A stretch of DNA of 64,000 nt. Source: a virus (taxonomy: Duplodnaviria; Caudoviricetes). Shown in pieces: positions 22,646 to 63,556 of this stretch (the stretch's first letter is position 1; the number at the start of each line of letters is the position of its first letter). The DNA is taken from positions 64,001 through 128,000 of the IMG/VR virus record IMGVR_UViG_3300012662_000009. The stretch is one strand, 5' to 3'. The position numbers and the translations under genes are program-made. The notes under the pieces were generated by a model, which saw only the letters and a program-made list of their open reading frames with translations, made no database searches and had not been told where the DNA came from.

Positions 22646-23152
22646 ATGAAAAATCTTAAAAACTCTATTTTAGAAGCACTTGATATGAATGTCCCTGAAA
22701 TGGGTATACATGCTCAAACTATTGTTGACAAAATAGCATGTTATATTGATATGGAGGACTACGATGTCACTAAACAATTCATGGAAGAAGTTTGCGCTGA
22801 ACTGGATAAGAAAGTTAAAGCCCCTGTAATTAAGAAAGTATTTGGGGTAACTGATAAGCATGAGCAAGAAATATATATGAATATAATTGGTATCTTTACC
22901 AGTACATTGACAGGCATTGACGATTATGAAGATCGTTATGAAAAACAACCTGATGATGTATTGAGATTTATTGAAAATACTGCAGAAATTCATAATAAAG
23001 ATTGGGCCGACGTTGATAACGATATATATGAGCATATAGTAGATAATTATGACGATTTTGATAGTGACCAAATATCTACAATGATTCAAAATGTGCATAA
23101 AAATTGGAATAATTTATGTCATACAGTATTAAGAGTTTTGTGGGCTTCTTGA
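22646..23152 (+). CDS. Acidic hypothetical protein with capsid-targeting-like N-terminus; probable paralog of 47678..48256
   Basis: MKNLKNSILE. C-terminal NWNNLCHTVLRVLW resembles IWNNFCLEVIYTEW. Confidence 0.6.
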   Translation: MKNLKNSILEALDMNVPEMGIHAQTIVDKIACYIDMEDYDVTKQFMEEVCAELDKKVKAPVIKKVFGVTDKHEQEIYMNIIGIFTSTLTGIDDYEDRYEKQPDDVLRFIENTAEIHNKDWADVDNDIYEHIVDNYDDFDSDQISTMIQNVHKNWNNLCHTVLRVLWAS

Positions 23153-23271
23153 TAATATAAATTATATTATATATAAACAAAAAAGAGATGCATATGCATC
23201 TCTTTTTTTTTTATTATAGGTACTTAAACGATATTTATAAACCTTATTATTATATAATAAAAAGTTATATA

Positions 23272-26200
23272 ATGGCCAGTGTTACAGATTGCTTAGTGCA
23301 ATTACAACAACTCACAAGACAAAATCTCGATATACTCCAAGCTATTAATGACGCTTTCCTTTCTAATCAGACACACTTAACTGCTAAGATAGGAGATGTT
23401 AAATATGCTATACCGTCTTTTCTGTCCTTAGAAAATAAAATCAATAACCTCCAAGATAATTTCAATAACCTTATAAATGCACCCAAGACGGGTGAAGCGA
23501 CTTTTAATCTTGATGGAAATTCTCGTTCGATCGAAGTGCGAGGTTATACACATGCTCCTAATAGAGTTGTATTAAGTGAAGTTAATGAATTTGGGATAGA
23601 ACAAAATGATATATTCAAAGACTTCTTAACACCTGTGCCTTATATAACATTCTCGCTCAAGGATTTACCTAATGACATTACATCAGTAAATATTAAGAAG
23701 ATAATCCCTAAAACTGACGAGCTCGAAGCCTTTTTCGTGGGATTAATAGATAAGAATACTGCTTCTAAATCATATTCGTATGCGGATTTATATAAAAAAC
23801 TTTATATATATGAAGAAGATAAAGATTATATTGAATATGATACCGTCAAGAAACTTCCTATAAGAAAAAATATAGGATCATCAACATATGTCATAGGTTC
23901 TATTAAATCAGATAATATAGACGAAAATCTTGATGAATATATAACTCTCCAGTTACGGAGCGATTTGAATATAGAAAATGATCCCAATTACACCAATAAA
24001 TTGACTTATAGACTCTTTGATGAGACTATAGAAAAACCTTTAAAAATAGGGGATCAATTAGTAACCTTTGATGACTCCGCCAAAGTTGAGATAACGGAAA
24101 TCCAACAGAATACTAATACTATCACTGTTAAAGTCCTCAGTGGTGAATATCTCAATCTCATGGAAGATTCTACTAATATGGACGTTTATAATATCTCGGA
24201 TCTCGCCAAACTAAAATTTTATTCCCCTATAGATTTTGATAATGATAAATATATAAGAGTTCCACTGGAAGAAGACCAGTATGTATTTATAGCCATAGCA
24301 CCTCTCAATGATAGAATGAATATTCAAGCTCCATGGGGTACTGGTGTAGTTCTGAATACATATAACTTAATGAATAATGATCAAAATTTTAAAGATTATT
24401 ATCAAAAAAACGTTCGTAATATAGGCGATGCATTAAATGAACTTGTAATGGTCTCACCCGGAGAACTCACTAAATTATCTGGTGAGGACTTTCAAAATCT
24501 ACAAAGCATCAAACCAAGTATTGATACAGATCTTTTAAAGGTGGTCCAGATCAATAAACATCTTAATGATACTGCCACTGTTAAGAATATCAAATCTTTA
24601 TATGCGCAGAAATTAAAATATAATGCCGATCTACAAGATATTCAGAATAAGATAGCTGATATAAACAGCAAATTATCATCAGTGTCTTTTGATGATACTT
24701 CGAACATCAAAACGGTTTATACTCAACAACTCGCCGAATATACCAAAACAAAAAATTCTTTGGTAACATCCCTGCAAAAGATCGTGGATGAGATATCACT
24801 TGCAGCAAATTCTTCTGATATTCCTATAGAAAATGCTAAGTATCATATCAGAGGGTTCTTTGATTATAAATCTTTCGCTGAAATAAATAATATAGATGAA
24901 AGCCATATAAAGGGTATACAGGTTCAGTACCGTTATAAGAATATGGATAAAGCTGTTGGTAATGCAACTACCATAGCAGACAAATTCTTGTTCTCTGACT
25001 GGACTGAAATGAAAGGTTTTATGAATACCAAAGAAGTATCCTGGGACAATGGTTATCAATTTAATGTTAAGGAAGATACTTCTAATCAAAATGAACCTTC
25101 TTTTAATCAAATAGATATTGCTATATCTCAGGGAGAAACCGTTGACATTCGCTTGAAGGTTATATATGATTATGGTTATCCTTATGCAGAGGTAACGACA
25201 CAATGGTCAGAAGCGGTCAATATAGAATTTCCTCAGGAATTTCTCAAGGATGTTCAAGTGCTTGATATAATTTCAGAGAATAATTCTGATATCGAAACAA
25301 ATAGATTCAATAATATTCTTGTAGAACAAGGTATCACAGAACATATTGGAGATAAAATACAGGATCAAGATGTAACTTATTATCATAAACCAGAAAACAT
25401 CTCTTCAGGATTTTATACTTCTGAGAGACGAGTTATTCCCTTAAAAGACAAGCTCGCAGAATTTTCAAATCTCCTGTCACAACTTAAAGATGAAGTGCTC
25501 GGTACTAATTCATCTGCACTGTCAGTTTCTGTGGGTGTAGGTGATATCTCTAATAAAATATATCCTTTACAATCTAATAACATTCTCGTAGAAGGTTATG
25601 CTGATTTGGTTAAGGATAACGGTACAAAAAATACTACTATAAATAATTATACTATAGATGAAAATCAAGTTATAAGCACTCTCTTGAATATATCTATTAC
25701 TAATAATTCAGAACATACTATGAAACTTTATCCCATGTTCCCTGGTAGTTCTAATGAGATTATTAATAATAAGCCAAACTTTAAATACAATGCTGCAGAG
25801 TATACTCTGGGTGCTTTTGTGTCTTCCGGTGATATTGCCCAGCAATTTAGTGAGTTACAAGAATTTATAAATAATCTTAGAGATAAAAATAATCAAGAAC
25901 ATGATAAGTTCAAACAAGATATAACAAGTTTATACGATTTAATCCGAACAGAAGGTATAAAATTTGATGCAGAATTTGTTAAGACCCAGGCCTTAGGTAT
26001 TAAAAATATTATATATAATGTATCTACAAAAGATAGAACATTAACCACTGAAAGAATAGGTGATACTATTTATGCCGATTTTTGGACTGAAAATAAAGTC
26101 CCTGCTCAAAATATTAGTGCAGATGATCTAAAAAAGGTAAACAACATTTGTAAAGGGTTTATGAGTGAAGTTGAATTCCACTTCCAGTTATCCCGTGATA

Positions 26201-28700: not shown

Positions 28701-28942
28701 TGATTATAAATACTTCTGGAACTCGATATAAGAGATATAAAGGTCTTGAAAAGACAGGAGAGCAAGCCTATGACTATGAAAAAAATGGCTTGCTCAATAA
28801 ACTTATGTCACATACTATTATAGAATCTAATAATGAAATTCTTAAAAGTATCTTATCTTTCTTTGAGAAATCTATGATATTCCTTATGAAATATACAAAA
28901 GAACTGCAAAATTTCAAAAATATACATTATAAAAATAGATGA
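28697..28942 (+). CDS. Hypothetical protein
   Basis: Overlapping ATGA junctions on both sides. Confidence 0.55.
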   Translation: MMIINTSGTRYKRYKGLEKTGEQAYDYEKNGLLNKLMSHTIIESNNEILKSILSFFEKSMIFLMKYTKELQNFKNIHYKNR

Positions 28943-29335
28943 ATCCACTGAATAAATATATATCTGAAGGGTTATTTGATGACGAAGATGATTTACTGGA
29001 TAAGAAACCTTCCGCAGCATCTCTTAATTGGTTCTTAGATGAGAATAATGTTATATTCCCTGATGAAAATTCCGAGAATTTAAATATAAATAATACAGGA
29101 GAATTAATCGTTAAAAGGCCCCCGCACAGGTCTTATAATCACGAATCTCCTCAATCCTATACCTGATTGGGTTGATACAAATAAAAACAATTGGGATGAA
29201 TTTGTATGGTTTAATATCATGTATCCTGTTAAATCTCAAAAAGATCTTCCTGTGGTAGGCAATATACAATACTTAAGTGGTTTTGCGCCAAGGTTCGCAC
29301 TGGAGAATGCGCAAATTCCTTACGAATTAAGATAG
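28939..29335 (+). pseudogene. Frameshifted, truncated member of the tagged E-(S/G)LFDD family
   Basis: MNPLNKYISE-GLFDDEDDLLDKKP. After a +1 shift near the C5 run (29119-29123) the frame reads NPIPDW...IMYPVKSQKDLP, matching NPIPKW...IEYPIKSQKDIP of 62705..63556. Confidence 0.75.
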
Positions 29336-29339: not shown

Positions 29340-30116
29340 ATGAAAGATATAAAAGATATAAAAGATATGAAAGATATAAAAGATTTTTTATTTGAAAGAA
29401 ATTATATAGGTGATTTACCCTTTACTTTTGAAGATCTATGTGATTTTATAAGAAATATTTGGGATGATGAATCGGAATCTTATATAAAAATGCAACAGTG
29501 TATAACGGATAATTACGGTGAAAGAGCCTGGTCTGGATTTCATGGATGGATCGAAAGCAAATCTAACATAGATCCGATGTCTTTATATATTAAACTTCAA
29601 AAATTCCCTGCAGATAGACTACCCAGGATTTTAGGATCTGGTTCTTATGGATCTGTATTTACTATAGGAAATGATAAAATTATAAAATGGTTTAATCTAC
29701 CTCCTGAAAAAAATGATATAATATTTTATAAATATTGTTTGAATAATAAATCGAAGTATTTCCCTAAAATATATAAATACAATGATAAATATTGTATTAT
29801 GGAGAAATTAAAAGATAATACTCAAAAATGTAAATTATATTCGAAGACCATTAATAAATATTTTAAGATCAACGGTAAAAATACTTCTATATGGGATATT
29901 GTAAATCAAATCATGAAAGGAGAAAAAATCACAAAAAAGGATCAAATAGAAATTGACAAATATATAAAAAATTTATCCAGTGATGATAAAGTAATATATG
30001 AATGGTTTTATAATGCTATGCAAGAAGCCCAGGATAATGGGTTTATAGCAGTGGATATGAAATCTTCTAATATAGGCGAAAGATCCGACGGTGATATTGT
30101 GTGGTTTGATATATAA
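29340..30116 (+). CDS. Ser/Thr protein kinase-like protein with capsid-targeting-like N-terminus
   Basis: LGSGSYGSVF..IIK, IMEKL, DMKSSNI and WFD motifs. A 9-bp tandem repeat lies at the start, and the second ATG (29367) gives MKDIKDFLFE. Confidence 0.75.
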   Translation: MKDIKDIKDMKDIKDFLFERNYIGDLPFTFEDLCDFIRNIWDDESESYIKMQQCITDNYGERAWSGFHGWIESKSNIDPMSLYIKLQKFPADRLPRILGSGSYGSVFTIGNDKIIKWFNLPPEKNDIIFYKYCLNNKSKYFPKIYKYNDKYCIMEKLKDNTQKCKLYSKTINKYFKINGKNTSIWDIVNQIMKGEKITKKDQIEIDKYIKNLSSDDKVIYEWFYNAMQEAQDNGFIAVDMKSSNIGERSDGDIVWFDI

Positions 30117-30287: not shown

Positions 30288-30830
30288 CTATGTTTTGATT
30301 GTTATAACATCTATTCCAAATACTTTTTCAAGAGCCTTAGCCGATTCGAGGTTTTTTTCGCTGTCATCAAAGAATATGAATGTAGTATATCCTCTATGAT
30401 ATAATATAGATATTACTTCAGATTTCCTTTGATTAACCGTACCGGAAAGACCCAGTTTAGGATCATCTGTGGCAAATATAAGATTTTTGTCAAGATCTAT
30501 ATTATGTTTCTTGAGAAATTTCTTAATACCACTACATGAATTCCTGGCGGTGAGGATACCTATTTGTGATCCTTTTTTATATTCCCTTTTAAGTGTATCT
30601 AAATATTTTGTGGGAATTTCTTTTTCAAGCCATTTATAATCAGAAAATTCAGTGAAGTCAAAGGATTCGCCTGGTTTTAGATTGTAATTATTAAATTTTT
30701 TATTAGATATTCTTTTAGTTATTATACCATCCTTTATAATGCCTATACGAGCTGTGGTGTGGACAAGTGTATCATCCACATCAAATAAAAGTATCCTACC
30801 GTTATTTCTATACTCACTAAAGGTTTTCAT
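30288..30830 (-). CDS. HAD-superfamily phosphatase
   Basis: FDVDDTL, ILTAR, K and FFDDS--NL motifs. N-terminus MKTFSEY. Confidence 0.8.
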   Translation of the reverse strand: MKTFSEYRNNGRILLFDVDDTLVHTTARIGIIKDGIITKRISNKKFNNYNLKPGESFDFTEFSDYKWLEKEIPTKYLDTLKREYKKGSQIGILTARNSCSGIKKFLKKHNIDLDKNLIFATDDPKLGLSGTVNQRKSEVISILYHRGYTTFIFFDDSEKNLESAKALEKVFGIDVITIKT

Positions 30831-34346: not shown

Positions 34347-35096
34347 ATGAAAAATATAAAAGAATATATAAACGAGTCACTTTTTGATGACGAAGATGAT
34401 TTACTTGATAAGAACCCAGATCAAGTAATATTTGATTATTTGAAAAGCATAGTCCTATCACATCAAGTTAAATATGTAGATGAGGAATTTTATATAAAGA
34501 ATGGTATAATATACTATAGAGGAAGTGATCAATTTACATTTACCATCGAAAGCCCTATGCCTTCTTATATAAATTTTGATAAAAAATCCTGTGGTGATAA
34601 TATTATTTCTTTATTAAGTTATAATGGAATATCTCAGGAAGATTTGGATAGGCTTCCTGGTGGGGTCTGGTTAATAAAATCTAATAGATTGTCTAAATTA
34701 ACTATTCCTATATACAAGGCTCTTGATTTACAGGAAGTGAATATTTTTAATAATGTTATACTTAAGCCTGTTGAAGAATATACTAATATTGCAATAACTA
34801 TTGGTAAAAGAAAGCAGAATAAACTAACCCCTAAAGATATTATGAATTTATCTGTTCAGGGAAAGGATCCGGAAGTATGTCTCCGTATAATTAACCAGAA
34901 TGATTATAACGATATTAAAAATATGCTATTGAGTGATCCTGATTTTTCTAAGCATGTTATAAAGGATCTCCATTGTTCTGTAATAGTTGGTAATTATGGG
35001 GGTAGAGAAAAATATTTTTTAGAATATTTAGATATGTCCGATAACATTACTGACGTGATATCAAAAGGTCAGTGGAGAGAAAGATGTGAGATATAA
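34347..35096 (+). CDS. Tagged E-(S/G)LFDD family protein
   Basis: MKNIKEYINE-SLFDDEDDLLDKNP. Shares SQEDLDRLPG and ISKGQW with 46917..47672. Confidence 0.7.
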   Translation: MKNIKEYINESLFDDEDDLLDKNPDQVIFDYLKSIVLSHQVKYVDEEFYIKNGIIYYRGSDQFTFTIESPMPSYINFDKKSCGDNIISLLSYNGISQEDLDRLPGGVWLIKSNRLSKLTIPIYKALDLQEVNIFNNVILKPVEEYTNIAITIGKRKQNKLTPKDIMNLSVQGKDPEVCLRIINQNDYNDIKNMLLSDPDFSKHVIKDLHCSVIVGNYGGREKYFLEYLDMSDNITDVISKGQWRERCEI

Positions 35097-39966: not shown

Positions 39967-40617
39967 ATGATAGGATCAAAGATTAAGGAAGAAAATTACA
40001 ATGTACAACAGTATGCCCCTCTTGTATATAAAATAACAAAGCAATTCGTAAACTCTGTTAAGATGCCATGGAATGATATCAGTTCAATGGCGTGGGAAGG
40101 TCTTGTCCTGGCCTTTCGTAGCTATGATCCAGACAGATCTAACATGACTTTTGTACAATTTGCAGCGTATTCCATAAGAAATAATATATTAACTTCTATA
40201 GACTATGAACTGAGAACAGTGCGAATGTCAGCATATGCACAAAAAAAGGCTTCGGATCAGGGACTTCCTTCTTTTACATCGGTATCTATGACAGCTATAT
40301 CAGGAACAAATGGATCGGAGGATTCTGATATGACCTCTAAAGAATATCGATATAAACTTTATGAAGAGATCAAACCGGGTTATGCAAAAATTATGGATGG
40401 GATGTATAAAAAACTTGAGGGAAAATTTTCCGAGAGGGATATAAAGATCTTTTACATGACATTCTCTCTCAAAGATTATGATGAGTACAAATGTAAGGAT
40501 ATAGCGAAACACTTTAAGGTCTCTGAAGGTCGTGTATCACAAATAGTTAAGCATATAATAGAATATATAAGGCAAGATAAAGATCTTAAAGAATCTTTGA
40601 TGGATCTGCTTAATTAA
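39967..40617 (+). CDS. Sigma-70 family RNA polymerase sigma factor
   Basis: PLVYKI, EGLV-AFRSYDP, FVQFAAYSIRN-I and KDIAKHFKVSEGRVSQI. Confidence 0.88.
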   Translation: MIGSKIKEENYNVQQYAPLVYKITKQFVNSVKMPWNDISSMAWEGLVLAFRSYDPDRSNMTFVQFAAYSIRNNILTSIDYELRTVRMSAYAQKKASDQGLPSFTSVSMTAISGTNGSEDSDMTSKEYRYKLYEEIKPGYAKIMDGMYKKLEGKFSERDIKIFYMTFSLKDYDEYKCKDIAKHFKVSEGRVSQIVKHIIEYIRQDKDLKESLMDLLN

Positions 40618-42186: not shown

Positions 42187-42987
42187 ATGATAAAGATCAA
42201 TAGTGAACTTCCGATATGTTTATTAAGTGAAAATAAAAGACTTAATGAATATGACTTTGTATTATTTCATTTATATAATTCTAATCCGGATTATAGGATA
42301 TATTATAAGAATCTCAGTAGATTCTGTATATTAGATAATTCTGCTTATGAATTTTATATAAAAGGCGAGGAACTTAATATGGATTTATATAGAGAAGCTA
42401 TCGATGATCTTATTCCTGACTTTTATATACTTCCTGATGTCCTTATGAATAAAGATAAGACGTTAGAATTATCAAAGAAGTTCTTAAATAAACCCATTAA
42501 TAGTTTATCACCGGATCCAATGGGGACACTGCAAGGCAATACGCCTGAAGAAATGGTAGAGTGTCTTAAAGAATATAAAAAATTAGGCATAAGAGCTATT
42601 GCAATACCTTTTCATAATTATTTTTATACTGAATATAAAGTTGATAGTGATATTAAAGAATTTTTTGAAGAGCAATTTGGAATGATTAATAAAGATCATT
42701 TATATGCTATGGGTAGGATACAATTCATGAGAGATCATAAAGATCTTTTAGAAGAGATGGGTCATGTGCATATATTGGGTTCGCATTGCCCCATAGAAAA
42801 AGTCTTTTACAGAAATTTTCAGACCATGGATACAGGATATCCTGTCAAGTGTGGTATAGCAGGTGAGAAACTCTTTGAAGAAAAGGAAAAACCTAATATT
42901 ATCATTGATGATTTTATGTCAATTCCTCTAAGCCCCATGACAAAGGCTCTTATAATAGACAATATTGAGAAATTTAGAAGGTTATGA
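42187..42987 (+). CDS. TGT-fold / DpdA-like DNA guanine transglycosylase candidate
   Basis: ILDNSAYE, PDV, VHILG and MDTGYP resemble DpdA/TGT motifs. Located between queE and gp47/folE2. Confidence 0.6.
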   Translation: MIKINSELPICLLSENKRLNEYDFVLFHLYNSNPDYRIYYKNLSRFCILDNSAYEFYIKGEELNMDLYREAIDDLIPDFYILPDVLMNKDKTLELSKKFLNKPINSLSPDPMGTLQGNTPEEMVECLKEYKKLGIRAIAIPFHNYFYTEYKVDSDIKEFFEEQFGMINKDHLYAMGRIQFMRDHKDLLEEMGHVHILGSHCPIEKVFYRNFQTMDTGYPVKCGIAGEKLFEEKEKPNIIIDDFMSIPLSPMTKALIIDNIEKFRRL

Positions 42988-46308: not shown

Positions 46309-46842
46309 ATGAGTGTAGGATATAAAATTCTTAAAGTATCGCGAGGCTTAAAATCAAGCGTAGTAAACAGGTTCAATAATAGTATAAAAGATATCTTAAA
46401 TGATGCGAATGATGCGAATGATGATGATGAAATTACAAGCGAAATTATCGACAATAAAGTTGATGGTTTGAAAAAGATTCTTTTGAAAATGTCTATGAAA
46501 GTGGATGATGACTTCTTCATAGGGACGTTATATCCTGATGTTGATGAATGTTCAGTATATAGGCACCAATATTTCCTCAAAGAAGTGGTAAATCTACTAT
46601 ATAATCTTTTCGATAATGCTGAGCTTTTTGATGATCCCTTAAAGGATGTTTTTGGAGTTCTCAACTATCAAAAAAATCAAATTATGCAAATACCTTATAT
46701 GGATAAGGTTATTAACCGAGCTATGAAGAGACATATTCTCCCAGCCGAAGCTTCGCGCAAACGTTATATTAAGCATTTGGAAAGCGCCTGGAGCAAATTA
46801 GATAATTTATGTAAGGCAACCACAGGTCAATATTGGAAGTAA
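46309..46842 (+). CDS. Hypothetical protein
   Basis: 177-aa ORF. Confidence 0.55.
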   Translation: MSVGYKILKVSRGLKSSVVNRFNNSIKDILNDANDANDDDEITSEIIDNKVDGLKKILLKMSMKVDDDFFIGTLYPDVDECSVYRHQYFLKEVVNLLYNLFDNAELFDDPLKDVFGVLNYQKNQIMQIPYMDKVINRAMKRHILPAEASRKRYIKHLESAWSKLDNLCKATTGQYWK

Positions 46843-46916: not shown

Positions 46917-47672
46917 TTACTCATAAATAATTTTAACCCACTCACCTTTTGATATATCTTGAGTATATTCTCTATGATTTTTTGTTGTTTTTGTTTTATC
47001 TAAAAAAGCATAACCATATTTAACCTTGTGATTTACAACCAAATTTGCGCCTATATTTTTTATTATATATGGTAACAAATTTTTAAGTTGTTTTTCATCA
47101 AGCATTGAGGAGCTTGGCAATTCAAGTGTAAATATGCCGTCTGCGATTCTTTTATTAACAGTCAATCCCTGGACAGATTTTGCACCATATTGGCGAAAAC
47201 TATTTAATATGCTTATATTTCTATTTTTCTTGACCTTAAAGTCTATATTGACATTTTTTAATTCCTCTATTCCACAGAGTCTAATATCTGAATAAGCTTT
47301 TATATTTAAATCTTTTAATATAGTGGATTTACCTGCAAACATAGATGTCTGCACAGGATCATTAATAGACATTATTGTCCCAGGCAATTTATCTAAATCC
47401 TTTTGAGTTAAATCGGATATATTTATCATCCAGGTCAGGTTATTCTTTGACATATCAAATTGGATAAAATCTGGGATATGATCATATAATATGATTTGCC
47501 GACCATACTTTGAATAAAGACCCTTAGGGCCTGTTAAAAGAAGTTTTTCCGGATTTTTTAGATTTGTATACTGTTTCAACCATGAATATATGGCTTCTGT
47601 TGGGTTTTTATCTACGAGATGTTCCTCGTTATCAAATAATCCTTCTGATAAATATAATTTAATATCTCGCAT
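46917..47672 (-). CDS. Tagged E-(S/G)LFDD family protein
   Basis: MRDIKLYLSE-GLFDNEEHLVDKNP, TQKDLDKLPG and ISKGEW. Confidence 0.7.
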   Translation of the reverse strand: MRDIKLYLSEGLFDNEEHLVDKNPTEAIYSWLKQYTNLKNPEKLLLTGPKGLYSKYGRQIILYDHIPDFIQFDMSKNNLTWMINISDLTQKDLDKLPGTIMSINDPVQTSMFAGKSTILKDLNIKAYSDIRLCGIEELKNVNIDFKVKKNRNISILNSFRQYGAKSVQGLTVNKRIADGIFTLELPSSSMLDEKQLKNLLPYIIKNIGANLVVNHKVKYGYAFLDKTKTTKNHREYTQDISKGEWVKIIYE

Positions 47673-47677: not shown

Positions 47678-48256
47678 TTAACGTATATTATAAGGATCGC
47701 ACCATTCAGTATAAATGACTTCTAAGCAGAAATTATTCCATATGTTCAATAAAAAACTTACATTATCTTCGCATGAGTCTTTGCTTAATGTGCCATGGTG
47801 TTGTTTATAATAGATATTTATAAGATCCCTTGCAGCTTGATCATTGTCCCAAAGGCCTTGCGGGGTCATAATTTCAAGGATATCATTGGTCATGTTAATA
47901 TCATCTGAAGGAATGGAATCCATCATTTCTTCTATATAATCTATAAATGCCTCATATACAGTAATCATATCAGTTATATTCTTCTCATTATATCCAACAT
48001 ATCCTGAAAATTCATCATGAGTTGCTATATCTAAATTTCTTCTTAACCCTCTATCTAACAATTGTTTTAATTTTTTGAAGGAAAGAACATCCCTAATACT
48101 CTTTAAGTAATCTCGAAGTTCTGATTTGACATATTTAATCTTTTTCTTATCATCCATTTTAGAGCTCATTGATGTTTCACCTATTAGAATTTTTTGTAAG
48201 TTTGATATTACATCCATTGCATTAGACTCTGTTATAAATTGCTGTAAAGATTTCAT
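47678..48256 (-). CDS. Hypothetical protein with capsid-targeting-like N-terminus
   Basis: MKSLQQFITE. C-terminus similar to 22646..23152. Confidence 0.65.
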   Translation of the reverse strand: MKSLQQFITESNAMDVISNLQKILIGETSMSSKMDDKKKIKYVKSELRDYLKSIRDVLSFKKLKQLLDRGLRRNLDIATHDEFSGYVGYNEKNITDMITVYEAFIDYIEEMMDSIPSDDINMTNDILEIMTPQGLWDNDQAARDLINIYYKQHHGTLSKDSCEDNVSFLLNIWNNFCLEVIYTEWCDPYNIR

Positions 48257-48373: not shown

Positions 48374-49543
48374 ATGAGTGGATTATCAGGACATATGTTA
48401 AATCTTTGGGAGGACCTAAGTCTGACTAAAGCAGACCTTAAAGAAATCATCCAGAGATCTTTTGAAAATCGTTTTTGTTTCAAAGAAAAAATTGATGGAT
48501 TCAACATCCACTTCTTTATAAAAGACGGTGAACTCCGCTTCGCAAGAAATAAAAAGGACCTCTTAAATGGGGGTATGGATCTTGACGGAATATGTAATCG
48601 ATGGTTTAATAAAAAAGATATATTTGATGTTTATAAAGATGCTTATATGATCTTATCCGATACTCTGTTCACATTTCAACGAGGTCTTCCCGCATACACT
48701 CCAAAGTTTAAGAATAGCATTGTAACATATAATTGTGAGTGCTTCAAAGCAGGAATCACTAATGTAGTTCCTTATGAGTTCGGTGGAGTAGCTATCCATA
48801 ATATCTGGGAATGGGATCTCGATAGCAATGAAGTGATTATAACAGACTTTAATGATGTTAATAAAGGATATTTTCAGTTCTTGTGTGATCCTTATGTATA
48901 TATAGAACTTAAAGATTCCTACAAATCTTTATATAAATATTATAATGACACCATAGATTCCATATTCGGTCAATGTAAGACCATAGAAGAACTATATCAA
49001 AGGGAGTTTTTAATATACCTTAAAAAAGACTTTGCACATGCTTTTAAACATCCTGAGTATATTAAATATATCTTTAATAGAATCTTCAAAGATGATAATT
49101 CGTTTAATCTTAGGGACTTAAAAAAGATATACAAAGATCCGGAGGAATTTTGTACTGAGAATATTATAAAAACCTTAATAGATCTTAAACAAGATGTCAA
49201 ATATACTTGTTATGGAGAACTTAGGAAAACTCTTATAGAAATAGGAGATGTTCTATTAAGGGATGCAGATTGTTATATTAATCAAATTTATAAATATAAA
49301 GCTCAGGATATTCTGCGAAAAGAAATAAATGACGCTATTGATAGATTGATTAAGTGTGGTAATCAACACACAATAAATATCGCCAGTAAGATTTATCATG
49401 AATATGTTACTGGAGGTTCTACTATAAACCCCCTTGAAGGTGTAGTATTCAATTACAATAATCAAACCTATAAATGGACAGGATCGTTTAGTATTATTAA
49501 TAAAATAATAGGACTATCAAAATCATATGATAAAAAAATTTAA
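48374..49543 (+). CDS. Ligase-fold (covalent nucleotidyltransferase-like) protein
   Basis: KEKIDG (motif I-like), EGVVF (IV-like) and YKWTG (V-like). Confidence 0.5.
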   Translation: MSGLSGHMLNLWEDLSLTKADLKEIIQRSFENRFCFKEKIDGFNIHFFIKDGELRFARNKKDLLNGGMDLDGICNRWFNKKDIFDVYKDAYMILSDTLFTFQRGLPAYTPKFKNSIVTYNCECFKAGITNVVPYEFGGVAIHNIWEWDLDSNEVIITDFNDVNKGYFQFLCDPYVYIELKDSYKSLYKYYNDTIDSIFGQCKTIEELYQREFLIYLKKDFAHAFKHPEYIKYIFNRIFKDDNSFNLRDLKKIYKDPEEFCTENIIKTLIDLKQDVKYTCYGELRKTLIEIGDVLLRDADCYINQIYKYKAQDILRKEINDAIDRLIKCGNQHTINIASKIYHEYVTGGSTINPLEGVVFNYNNQTYKWTGSFSIINKIIGLSKSYDKKI

Positions 49544-50741
49544 ATCCTTTATAACAGAAAAAGATCAAGCTTGGCAAACAATAGCCAGAGACGTTAAAGA
49601 TATATACAATTATATAGATACATCTAAATTTCCTCCATATAGCATCTTCAAAAAATTTATAGAAAACACTGGTGAGACTGATATAAAGTTTATATGCAGG
49701 AATGATGGTGGGTGTTCTTATATAAAGATTCCTTATATATATGATGAATATCTTACCATTGCAGCAAAAAAATCTAATGGAGTATTCACTAAAGGTCCTT
49801 ATAGTGGCAGTAAATGTAATTTTTATTATAATAAAAAGAAATGTATAGAACTTGGTAACGGCTCTGTAAATCGGGTCTCAACAAAAGATCAGGAAAGTAA
49901 TACAATAAGACTTTATAACAACTATTCTAATCTTGTGCAGGAATCTTTAGAGGATATTGAAAATATCGCCCGTGATTTGGCTATAGATAAGACATGGGTG
50001 AAATCTTATAAAATGCAATTGATATCTATTATAAATTATATAGAATCGTTTGGTGGAGCTCCCGGTGATTATAAAATGGCTCGAGTTGATAAAAGTTCCC
50101 CCATAGGGGCCGCCTACGAGGGCATGGTAAATCGTTATAGAATTAAAATAGGACACAAAGATAGAAATACTGTAGATCCTTCTGACGTAATACTATATAA
50201 AAAACAAAACGAAGGTTCGATTATAAATCTCTTAAAATCCATCGAAGACATCAAAGAATTTCGCGAGAAACTTTTTAATACTAAAGAAGTCATCGGAATA
50301 TCCCTCAAAAAGCTCGGTAAGAATAGTAAAGGCGTTTATGAATTTAACAATGGTAAGATCCATATAAAATCTATTAAAGAAATCTATGGTTTCACTCGGA
50401 CATCCAATAAACAAGATCCTTCCAAAGAAGGCAGAGGTATTAAATTTAAAGTTGATTATATAGACGGAGAAGATCAAACAAGGACTATTACATGTGTTCT
50501 CAGGACCTTCGGAAGAGAATCATTAGATTTTAGTATAGACGGTACGACATATCAAGTAGGTAAATCACCCAGAGCTCTTTGGATGAAATATCTTAATGTT
50601 ACTAATAAAGACTCTATGACGGATATCTTTAATAAAATGGAAAATCTCATAAATAACAAACAATATGATATCTTATTGAAGATCATTAAAGGGTCTTTTA
50701 AGGAAGGAGATCAATGCTTTCCTTTTATAATGTTGCATTAA
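49527..50741 (+). CDS. Putative PD-(D/E)xK-like nuclease with capsid-targeting-like N-terminus
   Basis: MIKKFKSFITE, QE, DPSDVIL...IGISLKK. Confidence 0.45.
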   Translation: MIKKFKSFITEKDQAWQTIARDVKDIYNYIDTSKFPPYSIFKKFIENTGETDIKFICRNDGGCSYIKIPYIYDEYLTIAAKKSNGVFTKGPYSGSKCNFYYNKKKCIELGNGSVNRVSTKDQESNTIRLYNNYSNLVQESLEDIENIARDLAIDKTWVKSYKMQLISIINYIESFGGAPGDYKMARVDKSSPIGAAYEGMVNRYRIKIGHKDRNTVDPSDVILYKKQNEGSIINLLKSIEDIKEFREKLFNTKEVIGISLKKLGKNSKGVYEFNNGKIHIKSIKEIYGFTRTSNKQDPSKEGRGIKFKVDYIDGEDQTRTITCVLRTFGRESLDFSIDGTTYQVGKSPRALWMKYLNVTNKDSMTDIFNKMENLINNKQYDILLKIIKGSFKEGDQCFPFIMLH

Positions 50742-50933: not shown

Positions 50934-52280
50934 TCATTCCAAGCTCGTCTGTATATCTCTGGACCTTTCAAGACCTAATTCATCTACCAGTGGTTTATAG
51001 CAATATATAAACCAATCAAGTTTTATGTAATCTTTATTATTACTAAGCGTTTCTTCTATGGCTTTTTTGAGGTTATAATATTCAACATCAATGTTTTCTA
51101 ATATCTTTTTATCCCATTTCTTCATCAGGACATCTAATATAGAAAATATTATAAAGTGCTTATGATATTTTTCATCCTTCAATGCACTATCATATTCTTT
51201 AGGAACATTTTCAAGGAATTTCTTAAAATACTCTTTATAATTCTCTACCTTATCTCTATCTATATCGGATTTGAAAGGTCTTAATTTAAGTGTATCATCA
51301 GATCCTCCATAAATATCATAAGGTTCTATATTATGTTTTTTATTAAATTCTTTGAGTTTCTCTTTATATTCTGTTTGTGATTCTATATCAAGAATTTCAA
51401 GTAATTCATCAAAGTCTTTTTGCTGGTCTGCATCCAAACATTTTTTAAGAAGTCTTTGATATCTTTTATGAAATAACGGATTAGATTGTAATCTCATTAT
51501 AACCAATCCTTTATTATTATCGAACTCTGGTAATAATTTATCGCAATATTTCTTGAATTGTTCAGGAGTATTTACTATATACATCCAATCCTTAGCATTA
51601 TCTATATTATCTCTCCAGATTTCATATAAAAACTTTTGGTTTTGCAAATGTTGCATAGCTACCACACATTTCTTATAACCCATGGCTTTGAAATATGATA
51701 AGAACCTACATTTAGATACATATGTATATTTCTCTAATATATCTTCTTGTTCTAATGTATGATTCCATTCATCATATCTAAAGGGATAATACATACTATA
51801 TTCAAATGGAACAACACCAAAAGCGGTACCACTACAGTAGTCTGTAAACGGCCTATATTTATCTAAATATACTCTTTTATAAACATCCATATCGCAATAA
51901 GGCTTAGCATTAGAGCATTCAAGGATTGATAAAATATCGTGTTGTCTCTTATTATTCTCCCTCATATACTTCATCATAGTATAATAATCTTGCGACATAA
52001 GTTGCTTCTCAGTTTCTCCTATGAGTGAAGTAAGATCCCAATATTTTCTTGGAATAAGCTCTCTTTGATCTTGCAAGATCCTCGGGGTCTTGTCTTTTAT
52101 AGCTTTTATAAGGGCCTTTCTTTTATCGGTACCGTTTAAATTCTTTATATTATAATCTTTATCCCATTTAATTGTGACTGAATTATTCCCATATTTATGT
52201 TTAGCAATAACATAATATATAGCATCATCAGATATTATATCGCCTCTTTGCTCAAGTATAAAGTCTTGTAAAGTTTTCAT
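50934..52280 (-). CDS. ArcS/DUF5591-like domain protein with capsid-targeting-like N-terminus
   Basis: ILECSNAKPY...FGVVPFEYSMYYPF matches the ArcS PCSxxKPY...GVVPxE-x-x-x-YP pattern. Starts MKTLQDFILE. Confidence 0.6.
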   Translation of the reverse strand: MKTLQDFILEQRGDIISDDAIYYVIAKHKYGNNSVTIKWDKDYNIKNLNGTDKRKALIKAIKDKTPRILQDQRELIPRKYWDLTSLIGETEKQLMSQDYYTMMKYMRENNKRQHDILSILECSNAKPYCDMDVYKRVYLDKYRPFTDYCSGTAFGVVPFEYSMYYPFRYDEWNHTLEQEDILEKYTYVSKCRFLSYFKAMGYKKCVVAMQHLQNQKFLYEIWRDNIDNAKDWMYIVNTPEQFKKYCDKLLPEFDNNKGLVIMRLQSNPLFHKRYQRLLKKCLDADQQKDFDELLEILDIESQTEYKEKLKEFNKKHNIEPYDIYGGSDDTLKLRPFKSDIDRDKVENYKEYFKKFLENVPKEYDSALKDEKYHKHFIIFSILDVLMKKWDKKILENIDVEYYNLKKAIEETLSNNKDYIKLDWFIYCYKPLVDELGLERSRDIQTSLE

Positions 52281-52418: not shown

Positions 52419-54815
52419 ATGAAAGTAATAAAACGAGATGGATCAAAACAAGATTTTTCACCTGATAAGATCAAAGCAGTTATCACAAAAGCTTTTAATA
52501 GTGTTCAGCAAGAGGTACCCGATAAATTTTTAGAACAACTTATGGGTTCTTTTGATAAGATCAAGAAAGACGAAATAGATGTAGAGGATATTCAGGATAT
52601 TATTCAAAATGAACTTATTAAGCGTAATAAATATGAAGTTGTAGAATCTTTTATATTATATAGGAACAAACGAGCTGAGATCCGAGAGCAGAAATCTGAC
52701 CTTATAAAAAATATTAAGAACAAACTTCAAGGATCTAATATAGAAAATCAAAATGCGAATGTTGATGAAGAATCCTTTGGTGGTCGTATAGGAGAAGCTG
52801 CTCGTATAGTTTCTAAGAATGATGCATTAAAGTATAGAATGTCCAAAAAATCTCGTAAAAATCATGAAAATAATGAGATATATATCCATGATCTCGATTC
52901 ATATACTGCTGGAATGCATAACTGTCTTTCGGTACCCATAGACAAACTTCTTAAAGACGGCTTTCAAACACAACAGACGGATGTCCGTGGAAGCGGCTCT
53001 ATAAGCACTGCTATGCAACTTGTAGCGGTCCTCTTTCAATTACAATCACTGCAACAATTCGGAGGAGTCTCAGCAACTCATCTTGATTGGTCTATGGTGC
53101 CTTTTGTAAGGAAGTCTTTTTATAAACATTATAAAGATGCATTGAAGTTTATGGAAAATCTTAAAGGTAATTTTTATGAACTACAAGACAGATCCATAGA
53201 TGATGAAGCTTATAAAGAACATCCCAAGGCATATGAATATGCGATGGAAATGACTAAAAGGGAAGTTTATCAAGCGGTTGAAGCATGTTTTCATAACCTG
53301 AATACCCTGCAGTCGCGCAGTGGTTGCCAGCTCCCCTTCTCCTCTATAAATTACGGTACATGCACTCTCCCCGAAGGTCAATTAGTAATTCGGGCCATTC
53401 TTGACAAATCTATTGAAGGCACAGGAAAATATGGCAAGACTTCGATATTCCCCTGTGGAATATTCCAATACAAAAAAGGCATAAATGACCGACCAGGAAC
53501 TCCTAATTATGATCTTTTCAAATTAGCCTTAAGGTCCACTGCACAGAGACTTTATCCTAATTATGCCAATTGCGACTGGAGTAATCAAATAGATTGGGTT
53601 AAAAAAGACCGTAAAGACAAACAAGAATATATTGACAGTCTTGCGCAAGAAGATTATTCTAAACTATTAAAAATTATAGAAGAACAACCTGAGATAGGAG
53701 AGTTTTTGGATTTAACAATTTGCTCAAAAAACCTTAAAATTATGAGTAAAATTCACCCATATGAAGACTTTTCCACAATGGGTTGTCGCACAGTCAATGG
53801 TTTTGATATAAATTTTCTCGATTGCTATAAAGAAAATGTTCAATGCGCCTTAGAAGGAACCCCCTTCAAATATCCTGATCTCTGGTCAGCAGCTCAAAAA
53901 GATGGTAGAGGTAATATATGTCCTGTAACGATTATTCTCCCGACACTTGCCATGGAAGCCAAAGAACTTTCACAAAAAACAGGAGATGATATTATAGAAT
54001 GTTTTATGGATATCCTTAATAAGAAAATTTACGAGGCTAAGGATATGCTCTTAGAACGTTTTGACCATATATCATCACAATCACCCAAAGCAGCTAAGTT
54101 TATGTATGATAATGGTACTATGTCAGGATATAATGAGTCTGAGGGAATCATTTCTGCGCTTAAACATGGGACGATTGTAATAGGTCAATTAGGTCTTGCA
54201 GAGACTTTGTATATTCTTATAGGAAAAGATCATACAACATCTGAAGGAATGAATCTTGCTAAGAATATTGAACAACTCTTTTTAGACCGCTGTAATGAAT
54301 TTAAAGAGGAATACCATATGAACTTCGGAGTTTATTATACACCCGCGGAGAACTTATGTAAGACCGCTATGGATAAATTTAAGAAGAAGTATGGGGAGAT
54401 CCCTAACGTCTCCGATAAAAAATACTTTACTAATTCAATGCATGTGCCTGTATGGAAAGAAGTAAATCCTTATCAAAAGATTAATATAGAATCTCAATTA
54501 ACGGGTTATTCAAATGCTGGATGCATAACTTATGTCGAACTTCCCAGTACAGCTATAAATAACATTGAAGCCCTTGAAGATATTGTCAAATATGCTATGG
54601 ATGAAGACATTCCATACTTTGCTTTGAATAGCCCCTGTGACACATGCCAAGAATGTCATTATCAAGGTGATATCGGGGGTACTTGCCCTAAATGCGGATC
54701 AAATGATATCCTAAGACTTAAAAGAGTAACTGGGTATCTTACAACGGATTATAGAAGATTCAATGAAGGTAAGATAGAAGAAGTTGAGGATCGAGTTAAG
54801 CATATTAAAAACTGA
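52419..54815 (+). CDS. nrdD: Anaerobic ribonucleoside-triphosphate reductase with ATP cone
   Basis: VIKRDG ATP cone, IHDLD, HNC, MGCRT, TPAE, two CxxC motifs and the RVTGYL glycyl-radical loop. Confidence 0.96.
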   Translation: MKVIKRDGSKQDFSPDKIKAVITKAFNSVQQEVPDKFLEQLMGSFDKIKKDEIDVEDIQDIIQNELIKRNKYEVVESFILYRNKRAEIREQKSDLIKNIKNKLQGSNIENQNANVDEESFGGRIGEAARIVSKNDALKYRMSKKSRKNHENNEIYIHDLDSYTAGMHNCLSVPIDKLLKDGFQTQQTDVRGSGSISTAMQLVAVLFQLQSLQQFGGVSATHLDWSMVPFVRKSFYKHYKDALKFMENLKGNFYELQDRSIDDEAYKEHPKAYEYAMEMTKREVYQAVEACFHNLNTLQSRSGCQLPFSSINYGTCTLPEGQLVIRAILDKSIEGTGKYGKTSIFPCGIFQYKKGINDRPGTPNYDLFKLALRSTAQRLYPNYANCDWSNQIDWVKKDRKDKQEYIDSLAQEDYSKLLKIIEEQPEIGEFLDLTICSKNLKIMSKIHPYEDFSTMGCRTVNGFDINFLDCYKENVQCALEGTPFKYPDLWSAAQKDGRGNICPVTIILPTLAMEAKELSQKTGDDIIECFMDILNKKIYEAKDMLLERFDHISSQSPKAAKFMYDNGTMSGYNESEGIISALKHGTIVIGQLGLAETLYILIGKDHTTSEGMNLAKNIEQLFLDRCNEFKEEYHMNFGVYYTPAENLCKTAMDKFKKKYGEIPNVSDKKYFTNSMHVPVWKEVNPYQKINIESQLTGYSNAGCITYVELPSTAINNIEALEDIVKYAMDEDIPYFALNSPCDTCQECHYQGDIGGTCPKCGSNDILRLKRVTGYLTTDYRRFNEGKIEEVEDRVKHIKN

Positions 54816-59107: not shown

Positions 59108-59182
59108 GGTCCTTTAGCTCAGTTGGTTGAGAGCAGTAGACTCATAATCTAAAGGTCGTAGGTTCAAGCCCTACAAGGACCA
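59108..59182 (+). tRNA. tRNA with CAT anticodon, probably Ile2 (lysidine type) rather than Met
   Basis: GGTCCTT/AAGGACC acceptor, CT-CAT-AA loop and TTCAAG T-loop. C4-G69 and C5-G68 pairs as in Ile2 tRNAs. Confidence 0.85.
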
Positions 59183-59248
59183 CTTAAAGAGTTCTTTGAC
59201 ATTGTTGTTGAAAAGCCACCATGATGGAATGGTAGACATGGCAGACTT

Positions 59249-59909
59249 TGTTCAAAAATCAAACTATGGTATATGAAAACTATAAAGTATACGGGCCTTA
59301 TTTAAATAAAAAAGATAATAGATTGAGATGTAATTTAGTCTTTAAAAATAAGATGAAAATAATTTCTTATCCAAAATATTTAATGGAGGTTTATTTAGAT
59401 AGATATCTGGATAAAGATGAAACTGTAGATCATATTGATGGAAATCCTTTAAATAATGATATAAATAATTTACGCATTCTTAAAAGAAAAATTCATTGTT
59501 ATAATGATGCTTATCGTAACAAAGATTTAAAAGTAAAATGTAGAATGTGTAGGAAAGAATTTATTGTGAAGGGATCCAGATTAAATGATAGAAACAGACA
59601 TAATTCTGGTTATTTTTGTTCTAAACAATGCACAGGAAAATATGGTGCATTAATTCAGAATGGAGAAATAAAAAAAGAATATAAGCCAAAAATAACCTCA
59701 GATAAATATCAGGTCAGGAGTGCACCCGAAGAAATTCGAGATGTAGAAGCGGGCTAATTCGGTGAATGACATAGGCCTTATAAATTATGTAGAACGCCGA
59801 GCTAAGTTGAATATGAATTATTCATAAATGTGTAGAGACTATATACCCGCCTCCTAAGTTCTATATGAATATGGAGAAGACATAGTCCAAGTGCTTGAAA
59901 AAGCATATG
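59249..59909 (+). mobile_element. Group I intron (661 nt) inserted after U34
   Basis: U before the 5' splice site and terminal G at 59909. P3 GCGGG/CCCGC (59749/59846), P7 GACTA/TAGTC (59837/59883), P8 CTCC/GGAG, P9 TGCTT-GAAA-AAGCA, and P/Q elements AATTCGGTGAA and ACGCCGAGC. Confidence 0.9.
59266..59757 (+). CDS. Intron-encoded HNH homing endonuclease
   Basis: VDHIDGNPLNNDINNL HNH motif and C-terminal CRMC...FCS--C zinc finger. Confidence 0.85.
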   Translation: MVYENYKVYGPYLNKKDNRLRCNLVFKNKMKIISYPKYLMEVYLDRYLDKDETVDHIDGNPLNNDINNLRILKRKIHCYNDAYRNKDLKVKCRMCRKEFIVKGSRLNDRNRHNSGYFCSKQCTGKYGALIQNGEIKKEYKPKITSDKYQVRSAPEEIRDVEAG

Positions 59910-59970
59910 AAAATCTGCTGAGCAGGAATGCTCGTGTGAGTTCGACTCTCACTGGTGGTACTATAAAATA

Positions 59971-60148
59971 GGTTATATAGTTTAATGGAAACAGAATAGA
60001 CTTTGATAAAAGAGAAAAGCAATTCTAATGCTGTTAGAAATTATAAGTTTCTCCATTAGATAACCTTTTCGCAAAGATAATTCTGAAATGCTCCTGATTT
60101 ATCAAACTTTTAGCAGGAGAAATACAAGTTTAAATCTTGTTATAATCA
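59971..60148 (+). ncRNA. tRNA-shaped RNA with ~100-nt hairpin insert in the D-loop and an enlarged anticodon loop
   Basis: GGTTATA/TATAATC-A acceptor, TAGTTTAATGG D-arm start, CTCCTG/CAGGAG stem and ACAAG-TTTAAAT-CTTGT T-arm. Confidence 0.55.
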
Positions 60149-60157
60149 CAAAATAAA

Positions 60158-60258
60158 GACCACAGGTGCGCAACTGGATGGTCAACGTAACTCAATAACA
60201 CTTTAGGCTGTTATTTCTTAATCGTAGGTAAGAGTATGGTGGTAACGAGCAGTTCCAC
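60158..60258 (+). ncRNA. Unassigned structured RNA motif, copy A
   Basis: Hairpin, AACGTAA, CTCAATA stem, TCTTA-ATCGTAGG-TAAGA, 3' hairpin. Same architecture as 60518-60660. Confidence 0.55.
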
Positions 60259-60262
60259 TGAT

Positions 60263-60334
60263 GGTTCTTTAGCTCAATGGTAGAGCAATTGACTGTTAAT
60301 CAATAGGTTATAGGTTCGAGCCCTATAAGAACCG
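60263..60334 (+). tRNA. tRNA-Asn(GTT)
   Basis: GGTTCTT/AAGAACC-G acceptor, ATTGA-CT-GTT-AA-TCAAT and TTCGAG T-loop. Confidence 0.92.
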
Positions 60335-60343
60335 CGGATATAA

Positions 60344-60429
60344 GGAGGAGAAGCAGAATGGATTCATGCACCAATCTTCTAAATTGGCATCTGTAATAGA
60401 TGTTGTGGGTTCGACTCCCACCTCCTTCA
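60344..60429 (+). tRNA. tRNA with TCT anticodon (Arg) and a class II long variable arm
   Basis: GGAGGAG/CTCCTTC-A acceptor, CCAAT-CT-TCT-AA-ATTGG, V-arm CATCT-GTAAT-AGATG and GTGGG-TTCGACT-CCCAC. Confidence 0.8.
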
Positions 60430-60435
60430 CAAAAC

Positions 60436-60507
60436 GCTCCTATAGTATAATGGTTATTACACCTCACTTGTAATGAGGTTATATTGGTTCGATTCCGATT
60501 AGGAGCT
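60436..60507 (+). tRNA. tRNA-Thr(TGT)
   Basis: GCTCCTA/TAGGAGC acceptor and CCTCA-CT-TGT-AA-TGAGG. Confidence 0.92.
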
Positions 60508-60517
60508 CAGGAAAAAA

Positions 60518-60702: not shown

Positions 60703-60709
60703 TGTCCTA

Positions 60710-60957: not shown

Positions 60958-60988
60958 AAGATCTTATTATATATAAAAAAGATCCTTC

Positions 60989-62604: not shown

Positions 62605-62621
62605 CATACCTCTATAACACG

Positions 62622-62700
62622 CATAGAAGAGATTTAACAAAGAGAAATAGGCTTAGGTATATAAATCTATATCTAAGCCTATTTTGATCGAAATTTGAGA
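62622..62700. repeat. Dispersed palindromic element, copy D (inverted core TATATAAATCTATA)
   Basis: Flanks match copies B and C, but the core is reverse-complemented. Between convergent genes. Confidence 0.88.
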
Positions 62701-62704
62701 GGTT

Positions 62705-63556
62705 TTACGCGTAATCTTTCATGGAGCGAACTATGTCACTTTCTACATTATTTGTCGCCCAGAGGAGAAGAATAGGATCTCCACCGCGAGTTACCAATTG
62801 TAGGAGGCCTTTGGAGTTAAGATAAAATCCATCAATTCCGTTATCAACCATTTGACTGAACTCTTTAATATGATCAGATATTATGTATCTATTAAGACCA
62901 TGATCTTTCATTTCTTTATAGACATTTTTAAGATATTTAATTACAGGGCCTTTCTCATCTGTAAAAATTATTCTAAACAATTTTTTACCTTCGGATTGTA
63001 TATTACTGAGATCGTAAAAATTTACATTGGAATTTATAATGGATATAAATCTAATCACAGCACTATGATCAATAAATTTTAAATTGAGATTTCGGATGGA
63101 ATTAATCCCTTTTAATTTAAGAATTGACTGTTCATCCATTTTACCAGAAACATTTATATTTATGTTTTTGATATCCTTATTATTTTCTATAAAAGATATT
63201 AGTCCTGCGCCGGGAATATCCTTTTGAGATTTGATAGGATATTCTATATTTATGATTATTACTTTATTCCAGGGTTCTTCTTCTAATTTAATCCATTTCG
63301 GAATCGGATTAAATAATCTTAAACTCCTACCTAAAGAATCTCTAAATGTCCTCTTGATGTCTACCTTTCCTTCAGGATTAATGAAAAAATCATTGGCTAA
63401 TTTCCTATTATCATTGTCCCATAATCCACGAGCATTTATAGGATCTTTGAACCAGTCAATCATAGATTGATTGGGTGTCTTATCCAATAAATCATCTTCT
63501 TTATCGAAAAGAGATTCATTAAAGGATTTTATTATATATTCTTTAATATCTTTCAT
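62705..63556 (-). CDS. Tagged E-(S/G)LFDD family protein
   Basis: MKDIKEYIIKSFNE-SLFDKEDDLLDKTP. Confidence 0.7.
   Translation of the reverse strand: MKDIKEYIIKSFNESLFDKEDDLLDKTPNQSMIDWFKDPINARGLWDNDNRKLANDFFINPEGKVDIKRTFRDSLGRSLRLFNPIPKWIKLEEEPWNKVIIINIEYPIKSQKDIPGAGLISFIENNKDIKNININVSGKMDEQSILKLKGINSIRNLNLKFIDHSAVIRFISIINSNVNFYDLSNIQSEGKKLFRIIFTDEKGPVIKYLKNVYKEMKDHGLNRYIISDHIKEFSQMVDNGIDGFYLNSKGLLQLVTRGGDPILLLWATNNVESDIVRSMKDYA

Follow-up and report, generated by a model that had tools for sequence, protein, structure and literature searches.

Why should proteins of unrelated build, encoded on both strands of one viral genome, begin with nearly the same ten residues? The question is raised by a 64,000-nucleotide stretch of DNA (the window, bases 64001-128000) of the 158,646-bp virus record IMGVR_UViG_3300012662_000009 (Caudoviricetes), which has 31% G+C and a completeness estimate of 97%, and for which a simple selection of open reading frames (ORFs) yielded ~180 genes occupying 95% of the genome. 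Coordinates called genome positions refer to the whole record and all others to the window. The original prediction held that about ten ORFs of the window carry a T4-style capsid-targeting peptide and that their products are delivered with the virion as effectors. Our analyses lead us to give a probability of about 75% to the view that this N-terminal leader, or tag, is the counterpart of the T4 capsid-targeting sequence (CTS), cut by a protease of the gp21 family, and that it represents an expanded T4-type system in a distant, uncultured T4-like clade.

The leader was defined strictly as M[KR].[ILF]..[FY][ILF].E, near variants being counted separately. Six-frame translation of the whole genome gave 12 strict matches, all 12 located at a predicted gene start or at most 10 codons from it, whereas none appeared at the 961 internal Met positions; likewise, a DNA-level version of the strict pattern found 11 matches in this genome against 0 for a reversed-pattern control. 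A rough calculation from amino-acid frequencies led to a chance expectation of ~0.01 matches in 180 N-termini. The ten N-termini quoted in the original prediction were all present, each at its coordinate and strand. Five of them are strict matches (ORFs starting at 29367, 34347, 47672 (-), 48256 (-) and 52280 (-)), and four are near variants, with Ser at position 7 (22646), Asn at position 2 (28939), or an insertion in the leader of one residue (49527) or four residues (63556 (-)). Including near variants, ~25 of the ~180 genes (~14%) carry the leader, nine of them in the window. Chance starts of AT-rich ORFs do not account for these numbers, since a relaxed pattern gave 11 matches here and 1, 3 and 3 in the larger, more distant AT-rich relatives PTm1, PAU and pT24. 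Consistent with the claim that replication and metabolic genes lack the motif, in the window it was absent from the helicase, the exonuclease, QueC, QueD, QueE, FolE2 and the gene at 52419, which we take from its N-terminus, with no family search, to be a ribonucleotide reductase.

The tenth ORF of the original list, put forward as a partial match, did not hold up as a member. It encodes a HAD/polynucleotide-kinase-phosphatase-like protein (30288..30830, -) with weak family matches to Pfam HAD and phrog_415, in which the DxDxT motif begins at residue 17. Its start, MKTFSEY, is followed by no Glu at position 10 and scored 4.8 bits on the position weight matrix (PWM) of the leader, below the 7.2 bits of the best internal-Met decoy, so that this phosphatase was ruled out as tagged cargo.

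In T4 the tag reads MKTYQEFIAE (PMC8442874). Residues 4 and 7 are needed there for targeting, residues 8 and 10 for processing; gp21 cuts after L/I-x-E, and an Asp at position 10 blocks processing, not targeting (PMC9026906). The positions conserved in the leader described here, namely 4, 7, 8 and 10, are precisely those mapped as functional in T4. Moreover, when the T4 tag was scored on a matrix built from this phage alone it reached 11.4 bits, exceeding each of the 961 internal-Met decoys and each of the 46,280 internal positions, and the DNA pattern, when run on T4, picked out ipII, ipIII and gene 61.1. Both leaders comprise ~10 residues at the initiator Met, with hydrophobic residues at 4, 7 and 8 and Glu10, and identity to the T4 tag rises to seven of ten residues in MKTLQDFILE, the leader of a 448-aa protein discussed below. 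A further parallel to T4 gene 61.1 was observed outside the window, 11.6 kb before it, where a 58-aa ORF (genome 52230-52406, -) combines a leader, MKTFKQYLE (MKTFKEFIKE in 61.1), with a copy of the putative post-cleavage segment of the capsid protein (GNTxGMGNP), as 61.1 does, and a Lys-rich tail. Orthologues of 62 and 61 aa occur in two relatives.

A targeting sequence of this type calls for a prohead protease, and the gp21-like enzyme that the original prediction proposed to locate was found ~40 kb upstream of the window (genome 22789-24222, -). Its product matches Peptidase_S77 (PF03420) with 34-37 bits, above the cut-off, as well as Peptidase_S80 and the phrog_207 head maturation protease (E = 9.5e-39). 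Aligned to T4 gp21, with which it has ~30% identity over 120 residues, it conserves the catalytic His85 (GELxHP) and Ser140 (SSR), along with an N-terminal site L-I-x-E/T as in T4 (a slash marks the actual or putative cut). The C-terminal 300 residues appear scaffold-like, with WI(I/V)EE(Y/F)SP repeats among sites of the form hydrophobic-x-Glu (h-x-E). There are 34 such sites in the 477 residues of the protease, ~4 times the density of the remaining proteome (~1.7 per 100 aa), which fits a scaffold expected to be chopped up; a comparable fused 'prohead core scaffolding protein and protease' is annotated in PTm1. The gp23-like major capsid protein (18086..19804, +; PF07068, E = 1.6e-26) bears a putative propeptide of ~40 residues ending in NHEVYE/GLQT, and the sequence VYE/GLQT is common to the capsid protein (EVYE/GLQT) and to a site near the C-terminus of the protease (NVYE/GLQT), being kept as h-x-E/[GAS] in 12 relatives of the capsid protein and four of the protease. 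With a gp20-like portal (PF07230, E = 8.5e-74), these components make up what is, from its protein families, a T4-type head module. The likeness to T4 extends from the leader to a gp21-family protease, a site of the L/I-x-E type and a gp23/gp20-type head.

The mechanism that we propose follows the T4 model. The leader would form a short amphipathic helix whose hydrophobic residues 4, 7 and 8 dock the protein onto the scaffolding core during prohead assembly; the gp21-family prohead protease would then cut after Glu10, and the mature protein might be retained in the head with the DNA and could exit with it at infection. In both AlphaFold2 (AF2) models available, residues 4-9/10 formed a short helix outside the confident fold. 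As about two dozen genes begin with a T4-like loading peptide, the protein cargo of this phage is probably large and varied to an unusual degree.

Within the genome, the position of the cut is best indicated by the preserved junction in a family of 15 paralogues, ~13 of them tagged, to which four of the ten ORFs of the original list belong. No match was obtained for this family among known families in Pfam, PHROG and PDB profile searches, nor in an Atlas search with one member, while its metagenomic homologues retain the leader. The mature proteins would begin with (S/G)LFDxEDDLLDK, and conserved blocks P-x-(F/W)-I-K-F-D and SQKDI follow. Members in the window occupy 34347..35096 (+), with MKNIKEYINE/SLFDDEDDLLDK, and 46917..47672 (-), with MRDIKLYLSE/GLFDNEEHLVDK, while a truncated copy of 75 aa lies at 28939..29166 (+) and starts with MNPLNKYISE/GLFDDEDDLLDK. 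In the member at 62705..63556 (-), whose leader has the four-residue insertion (MKDIKEYIIKSFNE/SLFDKEDDLLDK), the junction h-x-E/SLFD is kept. Indeed, in members with Asp or Lys at position 10 an insertion restores h-x-E immediately before (S/G)LFD, examples of the restored junction being AVRE/GLFD, VTE/RLLG, FNE/SLFD and TFE/SLFD. Two further relatives in the window have lost the signal: a member with a decayed leader that has no Glu (6431..7114, +; NINVYM/SIFDDD) and a 42-aa fragment (22489..22617, +) that has no leader and begins at the post-cleavage motif, MSIFDDNILD.

The leader also behaves as a module when related genomes are considered. No cultured phage close to the source phage was found, and blastn of one 4-kb gene against 50,697 phage records returned no close DNA relative; capsid protein identity is 36-38% with the Tenacibaculum phages PTm1 and pT24, the Sphingomonas phage PAU and the Prevotella Lak megaphages, and metagenomic relatives exist with capsid proteins 60-72% identical. 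In four related genomes, with capsid proteins 69-72% identical and protease orthologues 56-65% identical, the pattern gave 6, 9, 11 and 11 matches and the reversed control none. Their tagged ORFs encode 60-495 aa, and 23 of 29 are without a homologue in the genome studied here, which denotes the same fast turnover as that of the T-even internal proteins (PMC3012670). As in T4, tagged proteins appear diverse and have the tag only in common, the unrelated carriers coinciding solely in their first ten residues. The tag is still present in homologues of the 448-aa, 404-aa and kinase-like proteins that are 26-40% identical. The 389-aa protein encoded at 48374..49543 (+) has no leader and is homologous to a tagged 414-aa protein of a relative (MKQLSAYLVE, L037 ORF), with 27% identity (E = 2.6e-39) and an alignment that starts just past the leader of the relative. 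We also observed, outside the window, a protein of 381 aa that has a motif of the HExxH type (HEVDGH; genome 147872-149017, +) and starts with MKTFNEYITT, with Thr at position 10, and whose homologue in a relative bears a full leader, MKSLTQYLYE.

Among the individual carriers, the enzyme called a kinase in the original prediction (29340..30116, +) could be substantiated. Its homologues form 89 clusters, and 47 sequences share G90, G92, D230, N235 and D248 without exception and K107 and E146 with few exceptions, hence the Gly-rich loop, the catalytic Lys and Glu, the D-x4-N catalytic loop and the metal-binding Asp are all present. The AF2 model has a predicted local distance difference test score (pLDDT) of 94.6, and its top Foldseek matches are APH(2'') and eukaryotic protein kinases with probabilities of 0.95-1.0, but with E values of 2e-3 to 1e-2 and template modelling (TM) scores of ~0.3. 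No Pfam family was matched by the 47 members, the best PDB profile match, to the SteC kinase, is weak (E = 0.029), the PDB sequence search gave nothing significant, and tblastn against the 50,697 phage records found no match. The predicted identity as a kinase is well supported at the level of fold and motifs. The tag stands in exact register in 41 of the 89 cluster representatives, with K2 in 78%, L4 in 80%, Y/F7 in 83%, I/L8 in 93% and E10 in 100% of them; ~20 more have it in a shifted register, and the 25 representatives that have none constitute a distinct subfamily or truncated forms. At the gene start, a nine-codon tandem duplication (MKDIKDIKD-MKDIKDFLFE; an 18-nt unit, ATGAAAGATATAAAAGAT, repeated with 9 extra nt between copies, 29340-29396) precedes the canonical leader MKDIKDFLFE at 29367, so that the start may be the ATG at either 29340 or 29367; a homologue 86% identical has no such duplication. 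We know of no kinase family previously found to be loaded into a phage head.

The carrier with the most T4-like leader is the 448-aa ArcS2-like (DUF5591-like) protein encoded at 50934..52280 (-), MKTLQDFILE/Q. Nine homologues retain the leader, with M1, K2 and L4 nearly invariant and E10 fully so; a canonical tag is seen even in a homologue 26% identical. In the ArcS2 motif PC-x3-KPY-x2-S-x2-H, C-x3-KPY is invariant in the 10 sequences while the P, S and H are not kept; the same motif is degenerate in the active ArcS2 of Vibrio phage nt-1 (PMC10516641). Its score against DUF5591 (PF17884), 16.3 bits (E = 0.0089), falls below the gathering cut-off of 26, although two homologues at 36-39% identity have a precomputed match to that family. 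Foldseek placed AF0587 (2q07) first, with a probability of 1.0, but with E = 0.03 and TM scores of 0.22/0.34, and 2q07 was also the best, weak profile match (E = 0.017); the PDB sequence search gave nothing significant and a single-protein scan of viral contigs with this protein no match. The window also encodes the preQ0-pathway proteins QueC (intein-split), QueD, QueE and FolE2, which fits the phage ArcS2 described in PMC10516641, each of these lines of evidence being weak. Compared with phage ArcS2 proteins such as that of nt-1, the 448-aa protein resembles them in C-x3-KPY, in the match to AF0587 and in the company of preQ0 genes, and differs in the incomplete motif, in the Pfam score and in the tag itself, which is not reported on published ArcS2 proteins. 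The ArcS-like reading of the original prediction is thus supported weakly, if consistently. A search of the genome with the TGT/DpdA Pfam families found no match, and a divergent DpdA may still be present. Separately, a 266-aa gene (42187-42987, +; phrog_19058) between those of QueE and a metallophosphoesterase is a candidate for a divergent DpdA transglycosylase.

The basic 404-aa protein (49527..50741, +) has a leader with one inserted residue, MIKKFKSFITE/K, and its homologues show canonical ones, MNNFKSFINE at 88% identity and MKTLYTYIVE at 31%. It had been described as nuclease-like, a reading that found no backing in Pfam or PDB, its only PHROG match being phrog_1462, of unknown function, and the Atlas leads being confined to weak, sub-threshold matches to restriction-enzyme-like clusters (RE_HaeIII and RE_HpaII). 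Taken as a whole, the original prediction of a T4-type leader removed after (I/L)-x-E fits the sequence tests, while its list of cargo had to be trimmed of the HAD protein and of the nuclease reading.

Two small carriers are acidic proteins. The first is a helical protein of 168 aa (22646..23152, +; MKNLKNSILE/A) that matched nothing in Pfam or PHROG, whose leader is the same as that of the genome ORF 46277 and which scored 20.0 on the PWM, but is itself a seed of the matrix. The second is an orphan of 192 aa with the strict leader MKSLQQFITE/S (47678..48256, -). Together with the genome ORFs 35306 and 46277 they may, tentatively, be grouped as a second small family by a short C-terminal N-x-L-C motif. 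A 177-aa paralogue of the leader-bearing proteins at genome 35306 and 46277 is encoded at 46309..46842 (+), and its own N-terminus appears as a decayed leader. Two sigma-70-like proteins were encountered as well, one of 216 aa with regions 2 and 4 and no leader (39967-40617, +), and a 460-aa paralogue at genome 37627-39009 (-) with a weak leader, MDNFSSFVLE.

With regard to known systems, the differences from T4 are considerable. T4 has a handful of carriers, whereas ~25 candidates are found here, with enzyme-like proteins and the 15-member family among them; the protease has a long scaffold-like half fused to it at the C-terminus; the capsid propeptide has ~40 residues against 65 in T4; and the phage, which is uncultured, is only a distant relative of T4. 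Among the giant phages, 201phi2-1 has ~19 processed head proteins and phiKZ a similar number (PMC5694885, PMC9026906). In phiKZ, 201phi2-1 and SPN3US (proteases gp175/gp245, S80 family), a gp21-related protease cuts many head proteins, paralogue families among them, after Glu, and the propeptides are thought to target the prohead; the Peptidase_S80 match of the protease described above is in keeping with this likeness. However, the propeptides of the giant phages mostly exceed 100 residues, have no common ten-residue consensus and are cut at S/A-x-E, whereas the tag described here is short, of T4 type, and has I/L at P3.

Several observations weigh against the reading of the leader as a T4-type targeting sequence. 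The cultured, more distant relatives PTm1, PAU and pT24 do not show the tag, and there is no close characterised phage to vouch for it. When left out of the motif matrix, four of its seeds (MDNFSSFVLE, MENINKYIYE, MKNITECFNE and MKDIKDFLFE) scored weakly, which makes the total of ~25 soft and the firm count 15-18. An ArcS2-like DNA-modification enzyme would be an odd cargo. Finally, internal h-x-E sites in the tagged proteins amount to 1.64 per 100 aa observed against 1.46 expected, that is, they are not depleted, and consequently there is no sign of selection to survive the protease.

This last observation is also what could be expected under the main alternative to injected effectors, according to which the tag is real but many carriers, chiefly those of the 15-member family, serve in assembly or in the core, are then broken down or expelled and never reach the host, like T4 gp67 and gp68, which are core proteins likewise cut by gp21 (PMC5694885). 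One family member (genome 24280-24993) adjoins the protease gene and another the portal gene, in agreement with such a role. Nonetheless, we consider it unlikely that this alternative explains the set, although part of it may consist of such components. Fifteen copies that are scattered, diverge fast and conserve their mature N-terminus resemble the variable T-even internal proteins more than an essential scaffold, the protease already possesses a scaffold-like C-terminal half full of cleavage sites, and enzyme-like carriers such as the kinase make poor sense as scaffold.

It appears very improbable that the peptide directs proteins elsewhere, to the membrane or to another assembly, or that it serves as an inhibitory propeptide and has no part in targeting. 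Carriers that are enzymes would fit a zymogen role; however, the peptide is short, amphipathic and Glu-ended and is no signal for secretion or for the membrane, its conserved positions are those of the T4 targeting and processing residues, and it co-occurs with a gp21-type protease across the clade. Slightly less probable still is a nucleic-acid feature, such as an AT-rich translation enhancer, part of a promoter or a recombination sequence, a possibility to which the AT-rich codons and the identical 36-nt start of three family copies lend some colour. Outside these three recent duplicates the leader copies differ in their codons, synonymously or by conservative exchanges between F and Y and between I and L, but not in the residue classes at 4, 7, 8 and 10, and the tag persists in homologues as distant as those described above. 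None of the upstream 6- to 8-mers was clearly enriched at 27 tagged genes compared with 153 other genes (best raw p 3e-4, with no multiple-testing correction), and a common promoter or upstream motif was accordingly rejected. Moreover, the major capsid protein, presumably highly expressed, has no tag, and the AT-rich relatives gave the few matches already mentioned. The codon and residue patterns lead us to conclude that the leader is a signal at the level of the protein. Least probable of all is that the motif reflects mere common ancestry of paralogues with no function of its own, because, although four of the ten window ORFs and ~13 genes genome-wide fall in one family, the strict matches alone are spread over six families with no detectable similarity past the leader, so that paralogy by itself does not explain their number; at least six families with unrelated bodies (kinase-like, DUF5591-like, DUF285, 404-aa and two small orphans) carry the tag, which is gained and lost independently of the protein body.

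Further features were noted in the window and the rest of the genome. The QueC (preQ0 synthase) gene (2618-4576, +) is interrupted by an intein that carries a LAGLIDADG homing-endonuclease domain. Another six homing endonucleases, paralogues of ~510-720 aa (phrog_3339/559) that are 30-52% identical to one another, are encoded at window 4642-6429 (+) and 19973-22141 (+) and at genome 13838, 26299, 28696 and 142949, one of these genes lying directly downstream of that of the capsid protein. Four tRNA genes (Met-CAT, Asn-GTT, Arg-TCT and Thr-TGT) are located at 59108-60508 (+). PHROG scans of ~20 further window genes yielded few annotations. Among the sequencing runs listed as holders, four in number and from a single study, none is of RNA.

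What the tagged proteins may do for the phage follows from where they would travel. Phage proteins carried in the head act before any phage gene expression, as T4 IPI* does against GmrSD, and for that reason are prime candidates for anti-defence and host takeover. That most of the carriers found here are injected effectors with such functions has, in our judgement, about even odds. Somewhat short of even, and to be taken as a tentative proposal, is the broader idea that the leader constitutes a portable address label extending from T4 to this distant clade, with 20 or more virion-carried, fast-changing proteins per genome. The arsenal so labelled might comprise, just as tentatively, the kinase-like family (~2/3 of its clusters tagged), the ArcS2-like enzyme and, outside the window, a sigma-like factor and an AAA ATPase.

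Virion cargo is normally found only by virion proteomics of cultured phages. In this case a ten-residue tag, cross-checked against the functional map of T4, seems to provide a list of what an uncultured phage clade carries, and points to new enzyme families as likely delivered effectors, chiefly a kinase-like family encountered solely in metagenomes. The T4 targeting code would then reach back much further, and be in much wider use, than one would gather from the T-even phages alone. If this is true, metagenomic phage genomes could be searched for the tag to predict injected effectors and anti-defence proteins directly, and the kinase-like family would be, as far as we are aware, the first of its kind to be loaded into a phage head.

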